Source of the DNA: Mustelus asterias
Lineage: Eukaryota
Direction of reading: 5' to 3'
Length of the DNA stretch: 64,000 nt
Assembly (NCBI RefSeq): GCF_964213995.1
Contig: NC_135821.1
Coordinates: forward strand, 29,884,001-29,948,000
Part shown: piece by piece, positions 1,423 through 63,719 of the stretch
How the letters are laid out: every line of letters starts with the position of its first letter
Numbering within the stretch: position 1 is the stretch's first letter
Notes under the pieces: model-generated
What the model was told of the DNA's origin: nothing
The model's input: the letters and a program-made list of their open reading frames with translations, nothing else
The model's database searches: none
Program-made: the position numbers and the translations under genes

Positions 1423-3556
1423 AACATATATTTCTCCCACAGGGATATATTTCTCATAGGGTATATTTCTGGAGGTATATTTCTCAGGGGGATATTTCTC
1501 CCACGGGGATATATTTCTGGGGGTATCATAGAAACCGTACAGTACAGAGAGAGGCCATTTGGCCCATCGAGTCTGCACCGACCACAATCCCACCCATATG
1601 CCTACATATTTACCCACTAATCCCTCGAACCTACACATCTCAGGACACTGAGGGCAATTTTAGCATGGCCAATCAACCTAACCCACACATCTTTGGACTG
1701 TATATTTCTCTCAGGGGTATATTTCTCGCACAGGGGTATATTCCTCACGGGGTATATTTCTGGGGGTATATTTCTCACAGGGGGTATAGTTCTGGGGTAT
1801 AGTTCTGGGGGTATATTTTCCCCACGGGGGTATATGTCTGGGGGTATATTTCTCACGGGGGTATATTTCTGGGGGTATATTTCCCCCACAGGGGGTATAT
1901 TTCCCCCACAGGGGTTATATTTCTGGGGTATATTTCCCCCATGGGGGTATATTTCTGAGGTATATTTCTGGGGGTATACTTCCCCCACACGGGGTATATT
2001 TCTGGGGGTATATTTCTCACAGGGGGTATATTTCTGGGGTATATTTCCCCCACAGGGGGTATATTTCTGGGAGTATATTTCCCCCACAGGGGGTATATTT
2101 CTGGGGGTATATTTCCCCCACAGGGGGTATATTTATCACAGGGGTATATTTCTCCCACAGGGGTATATTTCTGGCGGTATATTTCTCACAGGGGGTATCA
2201 CACAGGGGGTATATTTCTGGGGGTATATTTCCCCCACAGGGGGTATATTTCTGGGGGTATATTTCCCCCACAGGGGGTATATTTCTCACAGGGGTATATT
2301 TCTGGGGGTGTATTTCCCCCACAGGGGGTATATGTCTGGGGGTATATTCCCCCACAGGGGGTATATGTCTGGGGGTGTATTTTCCCCACAGGGCGTATAT
2401 GTCTGGGGTGTATTCCCCCACAGGGGGTATATGTCTGGGGGTACATTTCTCACAGGGGGTATATGTCTGGGGTATATGTCTGGGGGTACATTTCTCACAG
2501 GGGGTATATGTCTGGGGTATATTCCCCCACAGGGGGTATATGTCTGGGGGTACATTTCTCACAGGGGGTATATGTCTGGGGGTACATTTCTCACAGGGGG
2601 TATCACACAGGGGGTATATTTCCCCCACAGGGGGTATATTTCTGGGAGTATATTTCCCCCACAGGGGGTATATGTCTGGGGGTGTATTTTCCCCACAGGG
2701 GGTATATGTCTGGGGTGTATTCCCCCACAGGGGGTATATGTCTGGGGGTACATTTCTCACAGGGGGTATATGTCTGGGGTATATGTCTGGGGGTACATTT
2801 CTCACAGGGGGTATATGTCTGGGGTATATTCCCCCACAGGGGGTATATGTCTGGGGTATATTCCCCCACAGGGGGTATATGTCTGGGGGTACATTTCTCA
2901 CAGGGGGTATATGTCTGGGGGTACATTTCTCACAGGGGGTATATTCCCCCACAGGGGGTATATTTCTGGGGTATATTCCCCCACAGGGGGTATATGTCTG
3001 GGGTATATTCCCCACAGGGGGTATATGTCTGGGGTATATTCCCCCACAGGGGGTATATGTCTGGGGTATATTCCCCACAGGGGGTATATGTCTGGGGTGT
3101 ATTCCCCCACAGGGGGTATATGTCTGGGGGTACATTTCTCACAGGGGGTATATGTCTGGGGTATATGTCTGGGGGTACATTTCTCACAGGGGGTATATGT
3201 CTGGGGTATATGTCTGGGGGTACATTTCTCACAGGGGGTATATTCCCCCACAGGGGGTATATTTCTGGGGTATATTCCCCCACAGGGGGTATATGTCTGG
3301 GGTATATTCCCCCACAGGGGGTATATGTCTGGGGTATATTCCCCCACAGGGGGTATATGTCTGGGGGTACATTTCTCACAGGGGGTATATGTTGGGGTAT
3401 ATGTCTGGGGGTACATTTCTCACAGGGGGTATATGTTGGGGTATATGTCTGGGGGTACATTTCTCACAGGGGGTATATGTTGGGGTATATGTCTGGGGTA
3501 TATTCCCCCCACAGGGGGTATATGTTGGGGTGTATGTCTGGTGAAGCTGTACTCAC

Positions 3557-3796
3557 CCTGGCTGAGCGGCTCAGGTCATTGAACCTTTTCCGGCACTGGA
3601 TCCAGCTCCGGGGGGTGATGCTGAGCCTGCTGACCTCCTGTGCCACCTCCTGCCAGCCTCTCTTGGCCAGGCTGCTGTGAAGCTTCTTGCTGCTGGGGGG
3701 GAAGAGCAGGGCGGCCCGGGCCCGCACCGCCGCCACCAGCACCTCCAGGGAGGTGTCGGAGAAGCGGCGAGCCACCCGGCCCCGCCTGGCGGCCAT
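3557..3796 (-). CDS. Myb/SANT-like (trihelix, MSANTD/NAIF1-type) DNA-binding domain exon, typical of the PIF/Harbinger accessory protein
   Basis: gccATGG start, 80 codons (RFSDTSLEVLVAAV...LFP...WQEVAQEV...RSWIQCRKRFNDL), ending at donor AGG|GTGAGT. A TIR-like GGGTTTGGATTTTAA lies upstream at about 3947-3961. Confidence 0.8.
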
Positions 3797-3967
3797 GGCG
3801 CCCCGCTCAAAATCCGGCGGGCGGCGCGGCGGCGGCGGAAGATCCGCACCTCCCGGGGCGGGACTGCCGCCGGAAATTGCGCGCGGAAGGTGGGCGGGCG
3901 GCCGCTCCGCCAATCACTGGCCAGGACAGGGGGGAGAAATCCGGAGTTAAAATCCAAACCCGAGCGC

Positions 3968-4405
3968 AGCGCCGGCATTCCCGTCCCGCCGGCATTCCCG
4001 CCCTGTCCTGGTCCCGCCGGCATTCCCGTCCCGCCGCCATTCCCGTCCCGCCGCCATTCCCGCCCCGTCCTGGTCCCGCCGGCATTCCCGTCCCGCCGCC
4101 ATTCCCGTCCCGCCGCCATTCCCGTCCTGGTCCCGCCAGCATTCCCGTCCCGCCGGCATTCCCGCCCCGTCCTGGTCTCGCCGGCATTCCCGTTCCGTCC
4201 TGGTCCCGCCGGCATTCCCGCCCTGCCGGCATTCCCGTCCCTACCTGTTTAAAATCGCTCCCAGTCCCGCCAGCATTCCCGTCCCGGTCCCGCCGGCATT
4301 CCCGTCCTGGTTAAAATCGCTGCCAGCCACGCCGACATTCCCGCCCCGCCGACATTCCCGTCCCGCCGGCATTCCCGCCCCGCCCTGGTTAAAATCGCTG
4401 CCAGT
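3968..4405. repeat. GC-rich tandem array (CCGCCGGCATTCCCGTC) punctuated by TTAAAATCGCT motifs
   Basis: About 17-nt units, unusually CpG-rich. Confidence 0.9.
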
Positions 4406-4543
4406 CCCGGGGGAAGAGTCTGGATCCAATGGTTTGCACAAACACACAAGACATTTCCTGACACTGAACCATTCCCATCCAGAATCCATCCGGACAATCA
4501 GCACATTCTCCGCATCCTCCCGCTTTTCCAGTCCCGCACTCAC

Positions 4544-4693
4544 CTTTTCCCAGCTGCCAGACACACCCAGCCAGCGCCAGCAGCGAAACTCCGGCAAGGA
4601 GCAGCAGACAGGGCCAGCAGGAGGAGGTAGAGGGGCAGAGTGGACACTCGGAAATGCTGGTCGGAGATGGGGCAATGCTGGAATCTTCCAGAC
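4544..4693 (-). CDS. Stalk + transmembrane exon: (G)LEDSSIAPSPTSISECPLCPSTSSCWPCLLLLAGVSLLALAGCVWQLGK
   Basis: Acceptor tgtgtttgggtttcag|GT and donor AAAAG|GTGAGT, 150 nt, phase 1-1. Pro/Ser/Thr/Cys stalk followed by about 20 hydrophobic residues. This frame is not in the ORF track. Confidence 0.8.
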
Positions 4694-4721
4694 CTGAAAC
4701 CCAAACACAATCCCATCAGTT

Positions 4722-5215
4722 ACCCCCCAGAGGGAGGGGGGGGGATCAGGATAATAACACCCCCCGGGGGGTCAGGAGAATAACACCCCCACCCCCCAGA
4801 GGGAGGGGAGGGGGGGATCAGGACAATAACACCCCCCCCCCACCCCCCAGAGGGAGGGGAGGGGTGAATCAGGATAATAACACCCCCACCCCCCAGAGGG
4901 AGGGGAGGGGGGGATCAGGACAATAACACCCCCCCACCCCCCAGAGGGAGGGGGGGGGGATCAGGACAATAACACCCCCCCACCCCCCATAGGGAGGGGA
5001 GGGGTGAATCAGGATAATAACACCCCCCACCCCCCAGAGGGAGGGGAGGGGGGGATCAGGACAATAACACCCCCCCACCCCCCAGAGGGAGGGGGGGGAT
5101 CAGGACAATAACACCCCCCCCACCCCCCATAGGGAGGGGAGGGGTGAATCAGGATAATAACACCCCCACCCCCCAGAGGGAGGGGAGGGGGGGATCAGGA
5201 CAATAACACCCCCAC
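4722..5215. repeat. About 40-45-bp minisatellite CCCCCAGAGGGAGGGG...ATCAGGA(C/T)AATAACACCCCC
   Basis: About 11-12 copies visible. Confidence 0.92.
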
Positions 5216-23265: not shown

Positions 23266-26200
23266 AGGACCAGATCGCCTCCACGGAGGCAGGCTCAGGG
23301 GTCCGGAAGGGAAAGAAGGGGTTTAGGAGAGCGATAGTTGTGGGGGACGCAATGGTTAGAGGTACGGACAGGCGCTTCTGTGGGACTGAACGAGAATCCA
23401 GGATGGTAGTCTGCCTCCCTGGTGCCGGGGTACTGGATGTCTCCGAGAGGGTAGGAAGCATATTTAAAAAGGAAGGTAGTCAAACGGATGTGATTGTACA
23501 CATTGGGGGAAATGATGTAGGTAGGAAGAGCAGGGGGGTCATACGAGAGAAATTCAGGGAGTTGGGTGCTAGGCTAAAAAGAAAGACCTCCAGGGTAGCA
23601 ATATCTGGACTGCTCCCGGTGCCTAGTGCAAGTGAGGCTCGGAACAGGGAAATTCTACAGTTGAACGCGTGGCTAAAGGACTGGTGCAAGAGGGAGGGTT
23701 TTTAAATTCAGAAGATAACTGGGAAATCTTCAAGTCAGGATGGCAACTGTACAGAAAGGATGGGTTACACCTTAACTGGAAGGGAGCAAATATCCTGGCT
23801 GTGAGTTTTGCTAGAGTGTTTCGGCAGGATTTAAACTAGTGTGGCAGGGGGGTGGGGAACAAAACAGGAGGTCAGTAAATACTGAGGCTGGGGTCGAGCT
23901 GGGGGCCAGGGCAAGGCTAGCTAAGAAGATGAGCACTCTGGAGGAGGAGGACCTGACTGGGCCTGGAGGTCTGGAGTGCATCTGCTTCAATGCGAGGAGT
24001 GTAACGGGTAAAACAGACGAACTTAGGGCCTTAATGCTTGTGCGGAATTTGGATGTGGTTGCGGTGACGGAAACTTGGTTAAAAGAAGGACAGGACTGGC
24101 AACTGAATATTCCGGGGTATAAGTGTTTTAGGCGAGACAGAGGAGGGGCTAAAAAAGGTGGGGGAGTAGCGATATTAGTTAAGGAGCATATTACCGCGGT
24201 ACAGAGGGTAGACAACTTAGAGGGGTCATGTACTGAGTCGCTGTGGGTGGAACTCAAAAACAGGAAGGGTGCAGTCACTATGCTGGGGGTGTACTACAGA
24301 CCACCCAACAGCCCACGGGAAGTGGAGGAAAGGATATGTCAGGAGATTCTGGATAGGTGCAGAAAAAATAGGGTTGTTGTAGTGGGGGACTTTAATTTCC
24401 CTGGCACAGACTGGAAAGTGCTTAGAGCTGGGGGACCGGACGGGGAGGAATTTGTAAAATGCGTACTGGAAGGTTCTTTGGAACAGTATGTAGATAGCCC
24501 GACTAGAGAGGGGGCTATACTGGACCTAGTTCTGGGAAATGAGCCCGGTCAGGTCGTCAAAGTTTCGGTAGGGGAACATGTGGCAAATAGTGACCACAAC
24601 TCTGTTAACTTTAGGATAGTAATGGACAAGGATGAGTGCTGTCCTACGGGCAGGGTGCTAAATTGGGGGAAGGCTGACTATAGCCGGATTAGGCAGGAAT
24701 TGGTGGATGTTGATTGGGAGAGGATGTTCGAGGGTAAGTCCGCGTCTGGCATGTGGGAGTCTTTTAAGGAACTATTGATAAGGCTGCAGGATAGGCATGT
24801 GCCTGTAAAAAGGAAAGATAGGAAAGGTAGGATTCGAGAGCTGTGGATAACCAGGGAAATTGAGGATCTGATTAAAATGAAAAGGGAGGCGTACGTTAAG
24901 TCCAGGCAACTGAAAACAGATGGAGCTCTGGAGGAATACAGAGAGAGTAGGAAAGATCTCAAACGGGGAGTTAGAAGGGCAAAAAGAGGTCACGAGATGT
25001 TCTTGGCAGGCAGGATTAAGGAGAATCCTAAGGCATTCTATTCATACGTTAGGAACAAAAGAGTTGTCAGGGAGAAAATCGGACCTCTCAGGGACAAAGG
25101 AGGGGAATTATGCTTAGAACCCAAGGGAATAGGGGAGATCCTAAATGAATACTTTGCATCGGTATTCACGAAGGAGAGGGGTGTGTTAACCGGGAGTGTC
25201 TCGGAGGGAGGTGTTGACCCGTTAGAGAAAATCTCCATTACAAGAGAGGAAGTGTTAGGTTTTTTAGGGAACATTAAAACTGACAAAGCCCCAGGGCCTG
25301 ATGGCATCTATCCTCGACTGCTCAGGGAGACGAGAGGTGAAATTGCTGGGCTTCTGACGGAAATCTTTGTCGCTTCTTTGGACACGGGTGAGGTCCCTGA
25401 GGATTGGAGGATAGCGAATGTGGTCCCGTTGTTTAAGAAGGGTAGCAGGGATAACCCAGGAAATTATAGGCCGGTGAGCTTGACGTCCGTGGTAGGGAAG
25501 TTGTTGGAGAGGATTCTTAGAGACAGGATGTATGTGCATTTAGAACGGAACAATCTCATTAGTGACAGACAGCATGGTTTTGTAAGAGGGAGGTCGTGCC
25601 TTACAAATTTGGTGGAGTTTTTTGAGGAAGTGACAAAAAAGGTTGACGAAGGAAGGGCCGTGGATGTCGTCTATATGGATTTCAGTAAGGCATTTGACAA
25701 AGTCCCACATGGCAGGTTGGTTAAGAAGATTAAGGCTCATGGGATACAAGGAGAAGTGGCGAGATGGGTGGAGAACTGGCTTGGCCATAGGAGACAGAGG
25801 GTAGTGGTCGAAGGGTCTTTTTCCGGCTGGAGGTCTGTGACCAGTGGTGTTCCGCAGGGCTCTGTACTGGGACCTCTGCTATTTGTGATATATATAAATG
25901 ATTTGGAAGAAGGTGTAACTGGTGTAATCAGCAAGTTTGCGGATGACACGAAGATGGCTGGAATTGCGGATAGCGAAGAGCATTGTCGGGCAATACAGCA
26001 GGATATAGATAGGCTGGAAAATTGGGCGGAGAGGTGGCAGATGGAATTTAATCCGGATAAATGCGAAGTGATGCATTTTGGAAGAAATAATGTAGGGAGG
26101 AGTTATACAATAAATGGCAGAGTCATCAGGAGTATAGAAACACAGAGGGACCTAGGTGTGCAAGTCCACAAATCCTTGAAGGTGGCAACACAGGTGGAGA

Positions 26201-26848
26201 AGGTGGTGAAGAAGGCATATGGTATGCTTGCCTTTATAGGATGGGGTATAGAGTATAAAAGCTGGAGTCTGATGATGCAGCTGTATAGAACGCTGGTTAG
26301 GCCACATTTGGAGTACTGCGTCCAGTTCTGGTCGCCGCACTACCAGAAGGACGTGGAGGCATTGGAGAGAGTGCAGAGAAGGTTTACCAGGATGTTGCCT
26401 GGTATGGAGGGTCTTAGCTATGAGGAGAGATTGGGTAGACTGGGGTTGTTCTCCTTGGAAAGACGGAGAATGAGGGGAGATCTAATAGAGGTGTACAAGA
26501 TTATGAAGGGTATAGATAGGGTGAACAGTGGGAAGCTTTTTCCCAGGTCGGAGGTGACGATCACGAGGGGTCACGGGCTCAAGCTGAGAGGGGCGAAGTA
26601 TAACTCAGACATCAGAGGGACGTTTTTTACACAGAGGGTGGTGGGGGCCTGGAATGCGCTGCCAAGTAGGGTGGTGGAGGCAGGCACGCTGACATCGTTT
26701 AAGACTTACCTGGATAGTCACATGAGCAGCCTGGGAATGGAGGGATACAAACGATTGGTCTAGTTGGACCAAGGAGCGGCACAGGCTTGGAGGGCCGAAG
26801 GGCCTGTTTCCTGTGCTGTACTGTTCTTTGTTCTTTGTTCTTTGTTCT
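23266..26848 (+). mobile_element. Young 5'-truncated CR1 LINE (partial SGNH-esterase-type ORF1, ORF2, (TTCTTTG)n tail)
   Basis: ORF1 remnant GDAMVRG...HIGGNDV...DGLHLN with a frameshift near 23700. Tandem 3' tail present. Confidence 0.93.
23839..26763 (+). CDS. CR1 LINE ORF2 (APE endonuclease + reverse transcriptase), uninterrupted 974 aa
   Basis: NARS, TETW, YRPP, GDFN and SDH endonuclease motifs; QHGF, DFSKAFD, GVPQGS and FADD RT motifs. Confidence 0.96.
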   Translation: MWQGGGEQNRRSVNTEAGVELGARARLAKKMSTLEEEDLTGPGGLECICFNARSVTGKTDELRALMLVRNLDVVAVTETWLKEGQDWQLNIPGYKCFRRDRGGAKKGGGVAILVKEHITAVQRVDNLEGSCTESLWVELKNRKGAVTMLGVYYRPPNSPREVEERICQEILDRCRKNRVVVVGDFNFPGTDWKVLRAGGPDGEEFVKCVLEGSLEQYVDSPTREGAILDLVLGNEPGQVVKVSVGEHVANSDHNSVNFRIVMDKDECCPTGRVLNWGKADYSRIRQELVDVDWERMFEGKSASGMWESFKELLIRLQDRHVPVKRKDRKGRIRELWITREIEDLIKMKREAYVKSRQLKTDGALEEYRESRKDLKRGVRRAKRGHEMFLAGRIKENPKAFYSYVRNKRVVREKIGPLRDKGGELCLEPKGIGEILNEYFASVFTKERGVLTGSVSEGGVDPLEKISITREEVLGFLGNIKTDKAPGPDGIYPRLLRETRGEIAGLLTEIFVASLDTGEVPEDWRIANVVPLFKKGSRDNPGNYRPVSLTSVVGKLLERILRDRMYVHLERNNLISDRQHGFVRGRSCLTNLVEFFEEVTKKVDEGRAVDVVYMDFSKAFDKVPHGRLVKKIKAHGIQGEVARWVENWLGHRRQRVVVEGSFSGWRSVTSGVPQGSVLGPLLFVIYINDLEEGVTGVISKFADDTKMAGIADSEEHCRAIQQDIDRLENWAERWQMEFNPDKCEVMHFGRNNVGRSYTINGRVIRSIETQRDLGVQVHKSLKVATQVEKVVKKAYGMLAFIGWGIEYKSWSLMMQLYRTLVRPHLEYCVQFWSPHYQKDVEALERVQRRFTRMLPGMEGLSYEERLGRLGLFSLERRRMRGDLIEVYKIMKGIDRVNSGKLFPRSEVTITRGHGLKLRGAKYNSDIRGTFFTQRVVGAWNALPSRVVEAGTLTSFKTYLDSHMSSLGMEGYKRLV

Positions 26849-37345: not shown

Positions 37346-37552
37346 CAGTAAGAAGTTTAACAACACCAGGTTAAAGTCCAACAGGTTTATTTGGTAGCAA
37401 AAGCCACACAAGCTTTTGGACCTGAAGAAGGGGCTTGGGGCTCCGAAAGCTTGTGTAGCTTTTGCTACCAAATAAACCTGTTGGACTTTAACCTGGTGTT
37501 GTTAAACTTCTTACTGTGTTTACCCCAGTCCAACACCGGCATCTCCACATCA
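37346..37552. mobile_element. Palindromic Penelope pLTR remnant
   Basis: About 70-bp inverted arms plus tail. Confidence 0.85.
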
Positions 37553-38651: not shown

Positions 38652-38723
38652 GGCCCCATGGTGTAATGGTTAGCACTCTGGACTTTGAATCCAGCGATCC
38701 GAGTTCAAATCTCAGTGGGACCT
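38652..38723 (+). tRNA. trnQ-TTG: tRNA-Gln (anticodon TTG)
   Basis: GGCCCCATGGTGTAATGGTTAGCACTCTGGACTTTGAATCCAGCGATCCGAGTTCAAATCTCAGTGGGACCT. A and B boxes intact, TTTT terminator at 38731-38734, one T-stem mismatch at 38714. Confidence 0.92.
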
Positions 38724-56970: not shown

Positions 56971-57658
56971 GATGCCATCATCTCACGTGAGAACACCATC
57001 TACCAGGTACACGGTACATACTCTTGCAACTCGGCCAACGTTGTCTGCCTGATACGCTGCAGGAAAGGATGTCCCGAGGCATGGTACATTGGGGAAACCA
57101 TGCAGACACTACGACAACGGATGAATGAACACTGCTCGACAATCACCAGGCAAGACTGTTCTCTTCCTGTGGGGGAGCACTTCAGCAGTCACGGGCATTC
57201 AGCCTTGGATCTTCAGGTAAACGTTCTCCAAGGCGGCCTTCACGACACACGACAGCGCAGAGTCGCTGAGCAGAAACTGATAGCCAAGTTCCGCACACAT
57301 GAGGACGGCCTAAACCGGGATGTTGGATTTATGTCACATTATCAATAACCCCCACAGCTTTCCCCCTGATCTTGCAGAATCTTACTAGCTGTTCTGTCTG
57401 GAGACAATACACATCTCTTTAACCTGTGTTTAATGTTCCCTCCACCCACATTGTCTGTACCTTTAAGACCTGGCTGGTTGTAGAGATTTGCATTCTAATT
57501 AGTATTCTGTAACTTGATTTCTGTGTCTCTGTGCACTGTTGGAGAACAGATATCCACTCCATCTGACGAAGGGGCAGCGCTCCGAAAGCTTATGGTATTT
57601 GCTACCAAATAAACCTGTTGGACTTTAACCTGGTGTTGTGAGACTTCTTACTGTGCTT
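56971..57658 (+). mobile_element. Penelope-like 3' fragment (GIY-YIG + pLTR)
   Basis: Same GIY-YIG peptide as 761-1236, with the pLTR ending in CTTACTGTGCTT. Confidence 0.93.
57559..57595 (+). ncRNA. Minimal hammerhead ribozyme (Penelope pLTR)
   Basis: ccat CTGACGA A GGGGC agc GCTCC GAA AGCT T atgg. Confidence 0.82.
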
Positions 57659-58957
57659 GCCCAAAGGAGGCAGAGAGTGGGTATAGATGGGTCTTTTTCT
57701 AAATGGAGGTCGGTCACTAGTGGTGTGCTCCAGGGAACTGTTCTGGGACCCTTGCTGTTTGTCATTTTCATAAATGACCTGGATGAGGAAGTGGAGGGAT
57801 GGGTTGGTAAGTTTGCCGACGACACGAAGGTTGGTGGGGTTGTGGATAGTCTGGAGGGATGTCAGAAGTTACAGAGGGACTTAGATAGGATGCAAGACTG
57901 GGCGGAGAAGTGGCAGATGAACTTCAACCCAAATGAATGCATAGTGGTCCATTTTGGCAGGTCAAATGGGATGAAGGGGTACAATATAAAGGGAAAGACA
58001 TTTAGTACTGTAGAGGATCAGAAGGACCTTGGGGTCCGGGTCCATAGGACTCTAAAATCGGCCCCGCAGGTGGAGGAGGTGGTTAAGAAGGCGTATGGTG
58101 TGCTGGCCTTTATCAATCGAGGGATTGAGTTTAGGAGTCCAGGGATAATGATGCAGCTATATAAGACCCTCGTCAGACCCCACTTGGAGTACTGTACTCA
58201 GTTCTGGTCGCCTCATTACAGGAAGGATGTGGAAAAGATTGAAAGGGTGCAGAGGAGATTTACAAGGATGTTGCCTGGATTGAGTGGCATGCCTTATGAG
58301 GATAGGCTGAGGGAGCTCGGTCTTTTCTCCTTGGAGAGACGTAGGATGAGAGGAGACCTAATAGAGGTATATAAGATGTTGAGAGGCATAGATCGGGTGG
58401 ACTCTCAGAGGCTTTTTCCCAGGGTGGAAATGGCTGCTACGAGAGGACACAGGTTTAAGGTGCTGGGGGGTAGGTACAGGGGAAATGTTAGGGGGAAGTT
58501 TTTCACACAGAAGGTGGTGGGTGAGTGGAATCGGCTGCCGTCAGTGGTGGTGGAGACAAACTCAATAGGGTCTTTTAAGAGACTCCTGGATGAGTACATG
58601 AGACTTAATAGGATGGAGGGTTATAGGTAGGCCTAAAAGGTAGGGATATGTTCGGCACAACTTGTGGGGCCGAAGGGCCTGTTTTGTGCTGTAGTTCTTC
58701 TATGTTTCTATGTTTCTATGAATGTATGCGTCGGGAAACAGGTAGTTTAGGTGATCTATATTTGTATTGTTAAATATTAGAAATAAAGTATCGACTTAAG
58801 TGGATTGAATTTAATGGCTTTGTGTAAGAAGAGTGAAATTCTAGTTAGATTGATGGGTTTTAGTTCGTTCAAACTGTGTTTCTATTGTGCTTAGAGAGGG
58901 TTTTGGTATGAAAAGTAAATAAAAGCTTGCAGAAGGAAAGATTGGTTGCTAAGTAAC

Positions 58958-61900
58958 TGTGGTGAACCATCGTTGGTTCACCATTGGGGGTTGTTATTAT
59001 GTTACTGTTGGGCTAGGGTGTTGTTACTGTGGGGGTTGTACTATGTTGTTGGGTTAGGGTGTTTACCTGTTATAAGTGTTACCATGGCACATTCCAGTGG
59101 GGTCCCGCCTCCGGTGGCGAGGTATAAGACCCTCTGCTCCGGCAGGACCCCTTCAGTCTGAACTGGTGTATTCGTGTTAGTAGTTCCATTGTTACACAAT
59201 AAAAGCCTTCAATATCGAAGCCTTGGTTCCACGTGCTTAATTGTCGCGCATCAATTTTATTGTGTAACAGAAAACTCGCAGCTGTACAAAAAAAAAGAGT
59301 ATGGAACAGATCTTAAAACCGGATCGTCTGGCACTGGACCCACGTACGGTCGGTGCCGCTAACACATTCGACCATTGGTGGAAGTGTTTCGAGGACTACC
59401 TGGCAGCCTCTGTAGCTATCACTACAGATAGTGATAAACTCCAGGTCCTCCACGCAAGGGTAAGCGACATGATTTATCTCGCCATTCGTGCAGCTCCCAC
59501 TTACCCGAGGGCCGTTGAGCTCCTAAAAAAACGATACACGAAGCCACCCAACGAGATACACGCTCGTTACCTCCTCGCTACACGACGTCGGCAGTCGGGC
59601 GAAACCATGGAGGACTACGCCAATGAGCTCCTGCAGCTTGCCAGGGGTTGCGATTGTAGAGACGTATCAGCCGAACAATATATGTACGACCTCGCCCGAG
59701 ACGCGTTCGTAGCAGGGGTAGGGTCCTCGTACATCAGGCTTCAATTGCTGGAAAAGGGGAACCTCGACTTGACCCAAGCAATGGAGATGGCTGGGATGCT
59801 GGAAGCGGCGTCGAAGAGCTTGGCGCTGTACCCCGAGGACCACGTGCAGTCAACGTGGCAGGAGCAAGCTCAGCTCCCTCCTCGCCCCGCTAACCCGCGC
59901 TCCCAGATCGATCCGACGACGGCGGCAGCTCCAGGTGGCCAGCGATGCTATTTTTGTGGTGGGGCCAAGCATCCACGGCAACAGTGTCCGGCAAGAACGG
60001 CAATCTGCAGCCAGTGCGGTAAAAAAGGCCACTACGGCAAAGTCTGCAGGTCAAAGTCTAAAAACGGCAGTGCAGCTTGTAACCCTCCAGAACGGAGACA
60101 ATCTCCTTCGGCGTTGCAGTACCCACGAGGTCCGACCACGTGCGAACCCAGGACGGCGCCATCGTGGCTGACGGAGGAGGAGGAAGACCACCAGGAGTCG
60201 CTGCGTTTGGCGCCCTCGCCCACGTGCGATTCATGGGGGCAGCCATCATGGTCCACGACGACTAGGAGCGACCAGCAGGGGTCCTCAGCATCAACATCGG
60301 CGGCATGCAGTGACGCCCAGGGGCCAACGGTGGCGTCGATCTCCCTAGACCAGACCAAGCACTACAGGCTTGAGAATTCCATGATGGATATAAAGGTAAG
60401 TGGTCGAACTGTGAATTGTCTGTTTGACAGTGGGAGCACCGAAAGTTTCATACACCCTGAAACTGCTAAAAGGTGTGGACTCCGGGTTCTCCCTGCCAAG
60501 CAGACAATTTCCATGGCATCACGGTCCCGGTCTGTACCGATCCAAGGACGATGTATGGTAACTCTTGAGGTACAGGGCACAATTTACGAGCAATACAGGC
60601 TCCTTGTGTTACCTCACCTTTGTGCGCCAATTCTCCTCGGACTAAATTTTATGGTCCACATGAAGAGTGTGATCCTACAGTACGGTGGGCCACTCCCTTC
60701 ACTGGCAGTAGGGAATCAGCTGCAGCCTCCAAATTGCCCAAAGCGCCCCGCATGCAATCTATCCACCTTGAAAATCACTACACCGTCCCTCTTTAAGAAT
60801 CTGGTACCTGGCTGCAAGCCCATCGCTACTAAAAGTAGGCGTTACAGCGCTGAGGACCGGATCTTTATTAGATCTGAGGTTCAGCGGCTCCTCAAGGAAG
60901 GGATCATACAGGCCAGTGCTAGTCCGTGGAGAGCGCAGGTCGTGGTAGTCAAAAGCGGGAACAAACCTCGGATGGTCATCGACTATAGTCAGACCATTAA
61001 TCGTTATACGCAGCTGGATGCGTATCCTCTCCCGCGCATTTCTGATATGGTCAATCAGATTGCGCAGTACCGAGTGTTCTCTACCATAGACCTTAAGTCC
61101 GCCTACCATCAACTCCCCATCCGCCCAGAGGACCGACAATATACGGCTTTTGAGGCGGATGGTCGTCTGTACCAATTCCTCAGGGTTCCATTTGGTGTCA
61201 CCAATGGGGTCTCGGTCTTCCAGCGTGCTATGGACCGAATGGTGGACCAGAACGGGTTGCGGGCTACCTTCCCGTACCTGGATAACGTCACCATCTGCGG
61301 CCATGACCAGCAGGACCACGACACGAATCTCCAACACTTTCTGCGCACTGCATCTCGCCTGAATCTGACCTATAACAGGGAGAAGTGCGTATTCCGTACG
61401 CGCAGGTTAGCCATCCTCGGATACGTGGTGGAAAACGGGGTCATTGGCCCTGATCCAGACCGTATGCGCCCACTTACTGAACTTCCCTTGCCCGCTAGCA
61501 CGAAAGCACTGAGGAGATGCCTCGGGTTCTTTTCGTACTATGCACAGTGGGTCCCCAACTACGCGGACAAAGCTCGTCCGCTCATTAAGTCCACGACCTT
61601 CCCACTTACGCCGGAGGCCCAATTGGCCTTCAAGGTTTTGAAAAGCGACATCTCGAAAGCCACGATGCACGCGGTGGATGAATCCATCCCTTTCCAGGTG
61701 GAGAGTGATGCATCTGATTTCGCCCTAGCCGCCACACTAAACCAGGCAGGCAGGTCCGTCGCGTTCTTTTCCCGCACCCTTCAAGGCCCCGAAATTCGGC
61801 ACTCAGCGGTGGAGAAGGAGGCTCAGGCCATTGTGGAGGCAGTCAGACACTGGCGCCATTACCTGGCTGGGAAGCGGTTCACCCTGATCACGGATCAACG

Positions 61901-63656
61901 ATCCGTGGCGTTTATGTTCAGCAACACGCAGAGGAGCAAGATCAAGAACGATAAGATCTTGCGGTGGAGAATTGAGCTCTCCACCTATAATTACGATATT
62001 ATGTATCGTCCAGGGAAGCTCAATGAGCCCTCGGATGCCCTCTCGCGCGGAACATGCGCCATCATGCAGGAGGACCGCTTGAAGGCTCTCCACAATGATC
62101 TGTGTCATCCTGGAGTCACCAGACTCTACCATTTCGTCAAAGCCCGCAACCTGCCCTACTCGGTGGAGGATGTCAGGTCAGTGACGAGAAGCTGTCGGAT
62201 TTGCGCAGAATGCAAACCACACTTTTATCGACCAGACCGGGCACAATTGGTCAAGGCCACTCGCCCTTTTGAGAGGCTGAGTGTGGATTTTAAGGGCCCC
62301 CTTCCCTCAACGGACCGGAATGTCTATTTCCTCAACATAATAGACGAGTACTCCCGGTTCCCGTTTGTTGTCCCCTGTGCGGACACGTCGACTGCCACCG
62401 TCATCAAGGCATTCAGTGAGCTTTTTACCCTGTTCGGGTACCCCTGCTACATTCATAGCGACAGGGGCTCGTCGTTCATGAGCAACGACTTGAGGCAATT
62501 CCTGCTCTCATTCGGGATTGCCTCTAGTAGAACCACGAGCTACAACCCTAGGGGTAACGGACAGGTGGAAAGGGAGAATGCTACAGTCTGGAAGGCTGTC
62601 CTACTGGCACTGAAATCCAGGGGCCTTCCAGTCTCCCGTTGGCAGGAGGTCCTTCGAAATGCGCTCCATTCTATCCGCTCCCTCCTGTGTACGGCAACCA
62701 ATGCTACTCCCCACTAGAGGATGTTCTCATTCCCTCGGAAGTCGTCCTCGGGGATCTCATTGCCAGCCTGGTTGACGTACCCAGGACCCGTCCTTCTGCG
62801 GCGACATGTGAGGGCTCGCAGGTCCGACCCCTTGGTCGAACCGGTCCAACTCCTCCACGCCAACCCTCAGTATGCCTATGTGGCATATCCTGACGGGCGA
62901 GAGGACACTGTCTCCATTAGAGACCTGGCGCCCGCAGGGGACGTAACAACTCCTGTCGCTCCTATTCCCCCAGTCACGAATCCACTACTCCTCATTGCTT
63001 CCCCAGACGTGGCGCGGTCAGCACCGGGACCAGTGCATAACACTTTTACTCCCATGTACAGCTTGCCTGAGACTCGGAGATCGGCGCCACCATCACCACC
63101 ACCACCACCACCACCAAAGGTTCCAGGATCCCCTGCACCATCGCCTCACCAGGGCCAACCGGCCCGGGAGTCCTTGAGGGGACAGCCGGACGTTGTTTTG
63201 GAGAGAACGCCACCGCAAGCACCTGCTCCGGTTTCGCAACCGGTGTTGAGGAGATCACAGCGTCGGTGCGGTCCTCCAGACCGTCTGGACTTGTGAATTC
63301 TGTTTATATGACCTGTTTTTCTTGCACCCCGCCACCTTTTGTTTTTAAAGGAGGGGTGAATGTGGTGAACCATCGTTGGTTCACCATTGGGGGTTGTTAT
63401 TATGTTACTGTTGGGCTAGGGTGTTGTTACTGTGGGGGTTGTACTATGTTGTTGGGTTAGGGTGTTTACCTGTTATAGGTGTTATCATGGCACATTCCAG
63501 TGGGGTCCCGCCTCCGGTGGCGAGGTATAAGACCCTCTGCTCCGGCAGGACCCCTTCAGTCTGAACTGGTGTATTCGTGTTAGTAGTTCCATTGTTACAC
63601 AATAAAAGCCTTCAATATCGAAGCCTTGGTTCCACGTGCTTAATTGTCGCGCATCA
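58958..63656 (+). mobile_element. Full-length Ty3/Gypsy LTR retrotransposon
   Basis: 296-bp LTRs (58958-59253 and 63361-63656), TG...CA, 2 differences seen. 5-bp TSD GTAAC. PPT AAAGGAGGGGTGAA at 63347-63360. Confidence 0.97.
59301..63296 (+). pseudogene. Gypsy gag-pol polyprotein (Gag with two CCHC knuckles, protease, RT, RNase H, integrase) with one in-frame TAG at 62715-62717
   Basis: CYFCGGAKHPRQQC, CSQCGKKGHYGKVC, LFDSGS, DLKSAYHQ, YLDN, ESDASD, HHCC zinc finger and D-D-E (VDFKG/HSDRG/VERE). The frame continues after the stop (TPH*RMFSF). Confidence 0.93.
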
Positions 63657-63719
63657 GTAACCAGGGGCACCTTTAGGCTGGGAAGGCTTCTGTGATTGTG
63701 TTTTAACTGAACTTATAGC

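Follow-up and report, generated by a model that had tools for sequence, protein, structure and literature searches.

How does an LTR retrotransposon begin reverse transcription when its 5' LTR is not followed by the TGG of a tRNA-type primer-binding site (PBS)? The question is raised by a Ty3/gypsy element, complete at 58958-63656 (~4.7 kb), in the 64,000-nt stretch of Mustelus asterias contig NC_135821.1 (positions 29,884,001 to 29,948,000, forward strand) that was analysed in its entirety and is called the window below. The best reading, to which we assign a probability of roughly 0.7, is Tf1-like self-priming, in which the element's own RNA would be cut just after its poly(A)-signal hexamer and would then act as primer. 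The features on which the argument draws are listed here in window coordinates.

58953..58957, + strand: left target-site duplication (TSD), GTAAC; the 5-mer is repeated at 63657-63661
58958..59253, + strand: 5' LTR, TG..CA, 296 bp, with 2 differences from the 3' LTR
58960..58983, no strand: 10-bp palindrome opening the LTR, seen in the sequence
59123..59128, + strand: TATA-like TATAAG, a promoter element inferred from sequence
59153..59158, + strand: initiator-like TCAGTC with its A at 59155, candidate start site, from sequence and the Inr consensus
59190..59204, + strand: 5' arm of the helix, putative 3' end of the self-primer, with AATAAA at 59198-59203
59205..59207, + strand: GCC directly 3' of the 5' arm; predicted cut at 59204/59205
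59207..59220, + strand: small predicted hairpin in the loop, 4 bp, inconsistently predicted among relatives
59255..59269, + strand: 3' arm of the helix at the PBS position, +2 nt from the LTR's CA, without TGG
59301..62717, + strand: single gag-PR-RT-RH-IN frame, ATG at 59301, with two CCHC knuckles and RT motif YLDN
62718..63296, + strand: polyprotein frame reopened behind the stop, with neither a Pfam family nor a chromodomain
63347..63360, + strand: polypurine tract, its GAA end abutting the TG of the 3' LTR
63361..63656, + strand: 3' LTR, with a second copy of arm and hexamer at 63593-63607 and no PBS arm downstream
63657..63661, + strand: right TSD, GTAAC, equal to the left 5-mer

The order PR-RT-RNase H-IN (Pfam domains of P0001: PR 360-448, RT 548-706, RH 767-893, IN 920-1080), two TG..CA LTRs, a TSD and a polypurine tract together identify the element as Ty3/gypsy. 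Since the LTRs are nearly identical (2/296 positions differ) and GTAAC stands at both flanks, the insertion is young; its polyprotein frame is broken by a stop (62715-62717) inside the integrase region. Among the matches listed, the nearest named proteins belong to rays and a catshark (75-83% over RT-IN), and the next ones, at 59-68%, include a sea anemone, a tunicate, Trichuris and Trichinella. The perfect 10-bp palindrome also opens the 3' LTR (63363-63386).

Behind the 5' LTR, 59255-59269 is the perfect 15-nt reverse complement of 59190-59204, with a loop of 50 nt between the arms. The 3' arm sets in 2 nt past the LTR's terminal CA, and the inner end of the 5' arm lies at AATAAAA, followed by GCC (AATAAAA/GCC). 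Inspection of the sequence between the end of the 5' LTR and the start codon at 59301 revealed no TGG. A preliminary description of this DNA had reported the missing TGG, the 15-nt complement and a TATAA near 59123; all three proved accurate, the complement to the exact nucleotide and the last as a TATAAG that begins at 59123. Its statement that the pairing can form only at the 5' LTR is correct for the PBS-side arm and fails for the partner arm, which recurs at 63593-63607 in the 3' LTR, so that the full-length RNA has two possible partners for the PBS arm.

We compared the post-LTR sequence with dinucleotide shuffles of the LTR (n = 10,000), none of which reached a complement of at least 13 bp (maximum 12). 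Fold z-scores were -3.6 and -4.1 for 85- and 101-nt pieces and only -1.95 for a 146-nt piece, and the predicted pair probability was 0.94-1.0 for 13 of the 15 helix pairs. The window contains 10 perfect inverted repeats of at least 11 bp (loop up to 100 nt), among which the helix is the third longest; it is therefore the position of the helix, not its length, that carries weight. An Rfam search over 58900-59400 returned 0 matches up to E 10.

Relatives were found by searching genome_contigs with an alignment of 40 proteins, which yielded 8 loci, apparently eukaryotic host DNA inside MAG assemblies. All six relatives with a recognisable 5' LTR-leader junction carry a helix of 10-17 bp at that junction (14 bp in L010, 13 in L012, 10 in L013, 14 in L014, 17 in L016 and 14 in L017). 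L013 and L014 form one family, giving six families with the window element (five further ones); over the best segment, their polyproteins share 45-65% identity with the query. L011 and L015, with their 5' ends missing, and the truncated in-clade L027 have no 5' junction to score; L030, a degenerate in-clade copy, shows no recognisable junction or helix, and the in-clade fragments L068-L072 are without gag.

MAFFT placed the 3' arm of the window element wrongly, and we therefore counted pairs with the hexamer as anchor, numbering the columns outward (-1, -2 and so on). Over the six families, Watson-Crick pairs occupy 72/72 cells in columns -1 to -12 and 82/84 to column -14, with no G-U pair among these helix cells; two or three pair types occur in 10 of the 14 columns, and pairing drops to 1/6 at columns -15 and -16. 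As these families are related to one another, the cells do not count as independent events. Arms taken from different families pair over 4-6 bp only (11 for L014/L017), versus 12-17 within an element. The register is equally constant: the 3' arm stands at +2 after CA in 7/7 elements, the 5' arm ends inward in ..TAAA(A) in all of them, and the trinucleotide after it is GCC in five of the seven 5' LTRs (GTC and TGG in the other two). The preliminary description had named covariation in related families as a check and loss of the complementarity in relatives as a refutation; the complementarity is kept by double-sided changes in six families, and this check did not refute the proposal. These results establish the complementarity, its PBS register and its compensatory conservation; the helix is real, clade-wide and covarying. 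Its prediction is uneven in L014, where the pair probability is 0.03 in a wide folding window and the helix is predicted in a narrow one.

Several observations concern the contigs themselves. The bacterium-labelled MAGs G001-G004 are rich in eukaryotic LTR retrotransposons (RT matches: 83 in G001 and 62 in G002), which indicates contamination with host DNA. L010 and L012 are ~4 kb self-closing contigs with one LTR, either collapsed repeats or one-LTR circles. Only 23 nt separate the end of the helix from the end of the LTR in L017 (L017:5934-5957), for which reason its strong-stop DNA and U5 would be very short. Contigs of organism A depart from the window sequence at 63597, within the arm, which points to a sister family with another arm, and contigs from 4 runs (one study) span the element as many short variant pieces, with 452 differing places. 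Scanning metagenome_contigs with a single protein yielded 7 loci, every one of them distant (28-32% identity), and scans of viral_contigs gave no in-clade locus.

As controls we used 16 Gypsy elements of other clades (L005, L073-L087; RT 28-35% identical). TGG was found 0-4 nt past the LTR in 13/16 of these, whereas a TGG tRNA-type site was found in 0/7 fold-back elements. L077, L079 and L085 have no resolved LTR pair, and L076 and L082 enter the TGG count alone; the self-complements of the 11 controls scored on the correct LTR are at most 8 bp. Against 49 surrogate tRNAs, mostly bacterial and a weak stand-in for the host set, the best match of the fold-back sites was 4-7 nt and internal; with the same mostly bacterial tRNAs, five of seven controls matched 7-8 nt at a tRNA 3' end. 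A two-motif search of five contaminated MAGs found no new family: among 20 matches to the two anchoring motifs, the 17 non-elements pair over 4-6 bp, and the remaining 3, which are known elements, over 10-14 bp.

The boundary between the two priming types coincides with a boundary in the RT tree (37 rows, midpoint-rooted, without named or chromovirus references, L016 and L017 not included). A long branch (100/99) separates all 11 rows labelled TGG from the five fold-back rows, on whose side the proteins of shark, ray, anemone, tunicate and nematodes also fall. The RT motif is YxDN in 92 of 121 clade proteins, including intact young elements, YxDD in 27 and not found in 2; every other-clade control in the tree has DD. 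Two CCHC knuckles are present in 81 of the 121 proteins, and a Pfam chromodomain was found neither in the window's two pieces, nor in the 6/6 relatives rescanned, nor in the domains of the 120 homologues listed. Both the absence of TGG and the clade boundary are thereby established. The clade is perhaps Cigr, which is a guess.

In the mechanism that we favour, the 15 nt after the 5' LTR would likely serve as PBS for the element's own RNA, which would fold back so that the PBS arm pairs with the poly(A)-signal segment of the LTR. A cut directly behind AAUAAAA, where the helix has its foot (59204/59205), likely made by the element's RNase H if Tf1 is a guide, would free a 3' end able to prime the minus strand into U5 and to yield a strong-stop DNA of ~50 nt. 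Poly(A) cleavage sites generally lie 10-30 nt from the hexamer, and the stretch between the two would provide the overlap for the first strand transfer; the helix would stop as soon as the hexamer is covered, leaving this overlap intact. Strict Watson-Crick pairing in G/U-rich arms would suit a primer duplex, possibly rewritten by primer copying, better than a structural stem. Folding in vivo, cleavage and priming are what we infer. The self-priming proposed in the preliminary description has gained good, if indirect, support (double-sided changes in six families, the PBS register, TGG in other clades), and the link it drew to Tf1/sushi stands as a mechanism and falls as a statement of membership.

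The Tf1 model supplies both the precedent and the difficulties. In Tf1, as described in the accessible part of PMC7175516, the PBS is paired to the first 11 bases, the RNase H cut falls between base 11 and base 12, and two additional 'pretzel' duplexes are needed according to the available text of PMC10085805. A simple helix search against shuffles found the downstream duplex in 0/6 families and the U5 stem in 1/6 (L012). These missing pretzel duplexes, the lack of a predicted helix for L014 in the wide folding window and the degenerate L030 without a recognisable helix all count against self-priming. So does the position of the primer: a start at 59155 would imply a primer of ~50 nt with 35 nt unpaired, a geometry absent from the Tf1 descriptions that could be consulted.

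Where transcription starts decides which form of self-priming is at issue. TATAAG at 59123 and the initiator-like A at 59155 suggest that the arm may be internal to the RNA, perhaps ~35 nt in as the preliminary description supposed; we take TCAGTC at 59153-59158 to be initiator-like by the Inr consensus. A second candidate start lies at ~59188-59191, and the abrupt outer end of the helix would agree with transcription beginning at ~59190. The latter corresponds to plain Tf1 geometry, in which the primer would be the first 14-17 nt of an RNA starting at the outer edge of the helix and the hexamer would be incidental. Such a geometry is a sub-case of self-priming, and it removes the novelty of an internal primer. 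The fall of pairing to 1/6 at columns -15 and -16 is what would be expected if the primer ended there, the helix lengths resemble the 11 of Tf1, and upstream TATA-like matches occur in only 2/6 families, at -67 and -73. The window element itself argues the other way, as the 32 nt from TATAAG to the A of TCAGTC are textbook spacing and no TATA-like match stands ~30 nt ahead of the arm; on balance, we regard a start at the helix edge as unlikely, though worth keeping in view.

The remaining alternatives depart further from self-priming in cis. The primer might come from another copy of the arm, supplied either by the genomic RNA at its 3' end (63593-63607) or by a short RNA that terminates within the 5' LTR, trimmed to the duplex while the leader stays uncut. 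The partner arm does occur twice, once right by the expected 3' end of the RNA, and the duplex would presumably halt a 3'-5' exonuclease exactly after the hexamer. This route is nevertheless improbable: the local partner is 50 nt away and predicted to pair at 0.94-1.0 over 13/15 positions, against a distance of 4.3 kb to the 3' copy, trimming would first have to take off the tail and 10-30 nt, and no precedent was found in the portion of the literature consulted. Quite improbable too is a helix that only hides the 5' poly(A) signal, with priming left to a tRNA half or another host RNA. Full pairing of a canonical hexamer in 5/6 families, an opening energy that rises by 3.5-7 kcal/mol with the leader in most settings, and the need of retroviruses with a signal in R for occlusion or repression (PMC12789967, in the text available) would all agree with it. 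It leaves unexplained the fixed +2 register, why no other PBS is present, the complete absence of G-U pairs and the family with GGTAAA; furthermore, the arm tracks the LTR of the element that carries it, as no host RNA would, and the best matches to the 49 surrogate, mostly bacterial tRNAs are internal ones of 4-7 nt. Finally, the abundance of perfect inverted repeats in the window might suggest chance or a one-off inverted duplication without function, and this explanation was rejected as extremely improbable, given that the helix covaries in register, with different letters, across six families with 45-65% polyprotein identity to the query over the best segment.

Self-priming leaves room for a second function, and we place the proposal that the helix conceals the 5' poly(A) signal as well just short of an even bet. 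The hexamer, AATAAA or ATTAAA, is predicted to be fully paired in 5/6 families, and in the window element adding the leader raises its opening energy from 1.4-1.9 to 7.0 kcal/mol; for L014, one of three settings shows no gain (3.6 to 3.7). L016 has a 17-bp, fully compensated helix around GGTAAA instead of the canonical hexamer, and L013/L014 carry a second AATAAA in the loop, outside the helix, which makes occlusion weaker than self-priming. The dual role envisaged in the preliminary description, primer and poly(A) suppression in one helix, is plausible in view of the paired hexamers and the energy rise, with these two families speaking against it. Other routes to suppression of the 5' signal are available to retroviruses, as the accessible text of PMC12789967 describes.

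Self-priming as a mechanism is already known, and what is described here would be a variant of it. Tf1/Tf2 of S. pombe, Tj1 and Tf1/sushi elements are likewise without a tRNA PBS and have a PBS complementary to their own 5' LTR, with a similar duplex length (PMC7175516, PMC4600332 and PMC10085805, as far as their available text goes). In contrast to Tf1/sushi, the present clade has no chromodomain, has two CCHC knuckles and mostly YxDN in its RT, and pretzel duplexes were not found; the primer of Tf1 is, in the descriptions available, the very 5' end of the RNA, whereas the arm described here has the poly(A) hexamer at its end and could be internal. Membership in Tf1/sushi was considered and not accepted, on the grounds of the missing chromodomain and pretzel duplexes. 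Chromoviruses are absent from cnidarians, protostomes as well as basal deuterostomes, as stated in the accessible part of PMC2774666; the fold-back element, in contrast, has relatives from cnidarians, a tunicate and nematodes.

Other systems share single traits. Self-priming has likewise been predicted from PBS-LTR complementarity in the plant Ty1/copia TAR lineage (Houba, Osr-1) and the Tcn1 clade, which belong to another superfamily or clade and to other hosts, and a tie to the poly(A) signal is not mentioned in the available text (PMC6317226). Retroviral suppression at the 5' end (the HIV-1 poly(A) stem-loop; U1 snRNP in HIV-1 and foamy virus) resembles the present case in that the hexamer of the 5' LTR is buried in a helix (PMC12789967, accessible text); here, however, the partner strand is the PBS, outside the LTR and at the 5' end only, and retroviruses prime with tRNA. 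The dictyostelid Skipper and the fungal GalEa are also without a TGG PBS, and differ in having, respectively, a polypyrimidine stretch without an LTR complement and a hairpin within the internal domain (PMC5006619 and PMC6934838, in the parts available). No PBS complementary to a poly(A) signal in an animal non-chromovirus clade is described in the literature covered, as far as its text was accessible, with Repbase and subscription journals outside the search.

In the accessible literature, self-priming has been tested only in fission-yeast elements and is taken to characterise the chromoviruses of the Tf1/sushi group and a few lineages from plants. Self-priming in an animal clade without a chromodomain, if true, would show that it originated repeatedly, and would account for the failure of PBS finders on elements of this kind; silencing by tRNA 3' fragments is also something that the clade would likely evade. 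If the helix also occludes, one signal would be used at the 3' and not at the 5' end by means of a partner strand unique to the 5' end. More tentatively, one may picture a widespread animal Gypsy clade (sharks/rays, cnidarians, tunicates, nematodes) in which tRNA-free priming evolved independently of Tf1/sushi with the element's own poly(A) signal as the 3' end of the primer, so that a single helix would keep the 5' site silent, define where RNase H cuts internally and fix the transfer overlap at the distance from hexamer to cleavage site; the odds of this complete picture are, in our estimate, clearly below even.

The surroundings of the element are rich in other repeats. LINE RT fragments are numerous in the window, one of them adjoining the left side of the element (57629-58630), and a LINE endonuclease-RT frame of 982 aa is open at 23815-26763. 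Degenerate minisatellite arrays with 32-34-bp, 17-62-bp and 46-bp units occupy 1794-5213, and account for the long overlapping ORFs without a Pfam match there. A 59-bp perfect inverted repeat with a short loop at 37346-37516 probably represents two opposed repeat copies, and ARAGORN calls a tRNA-Gln(TTG)-like gene at 38652-38723.
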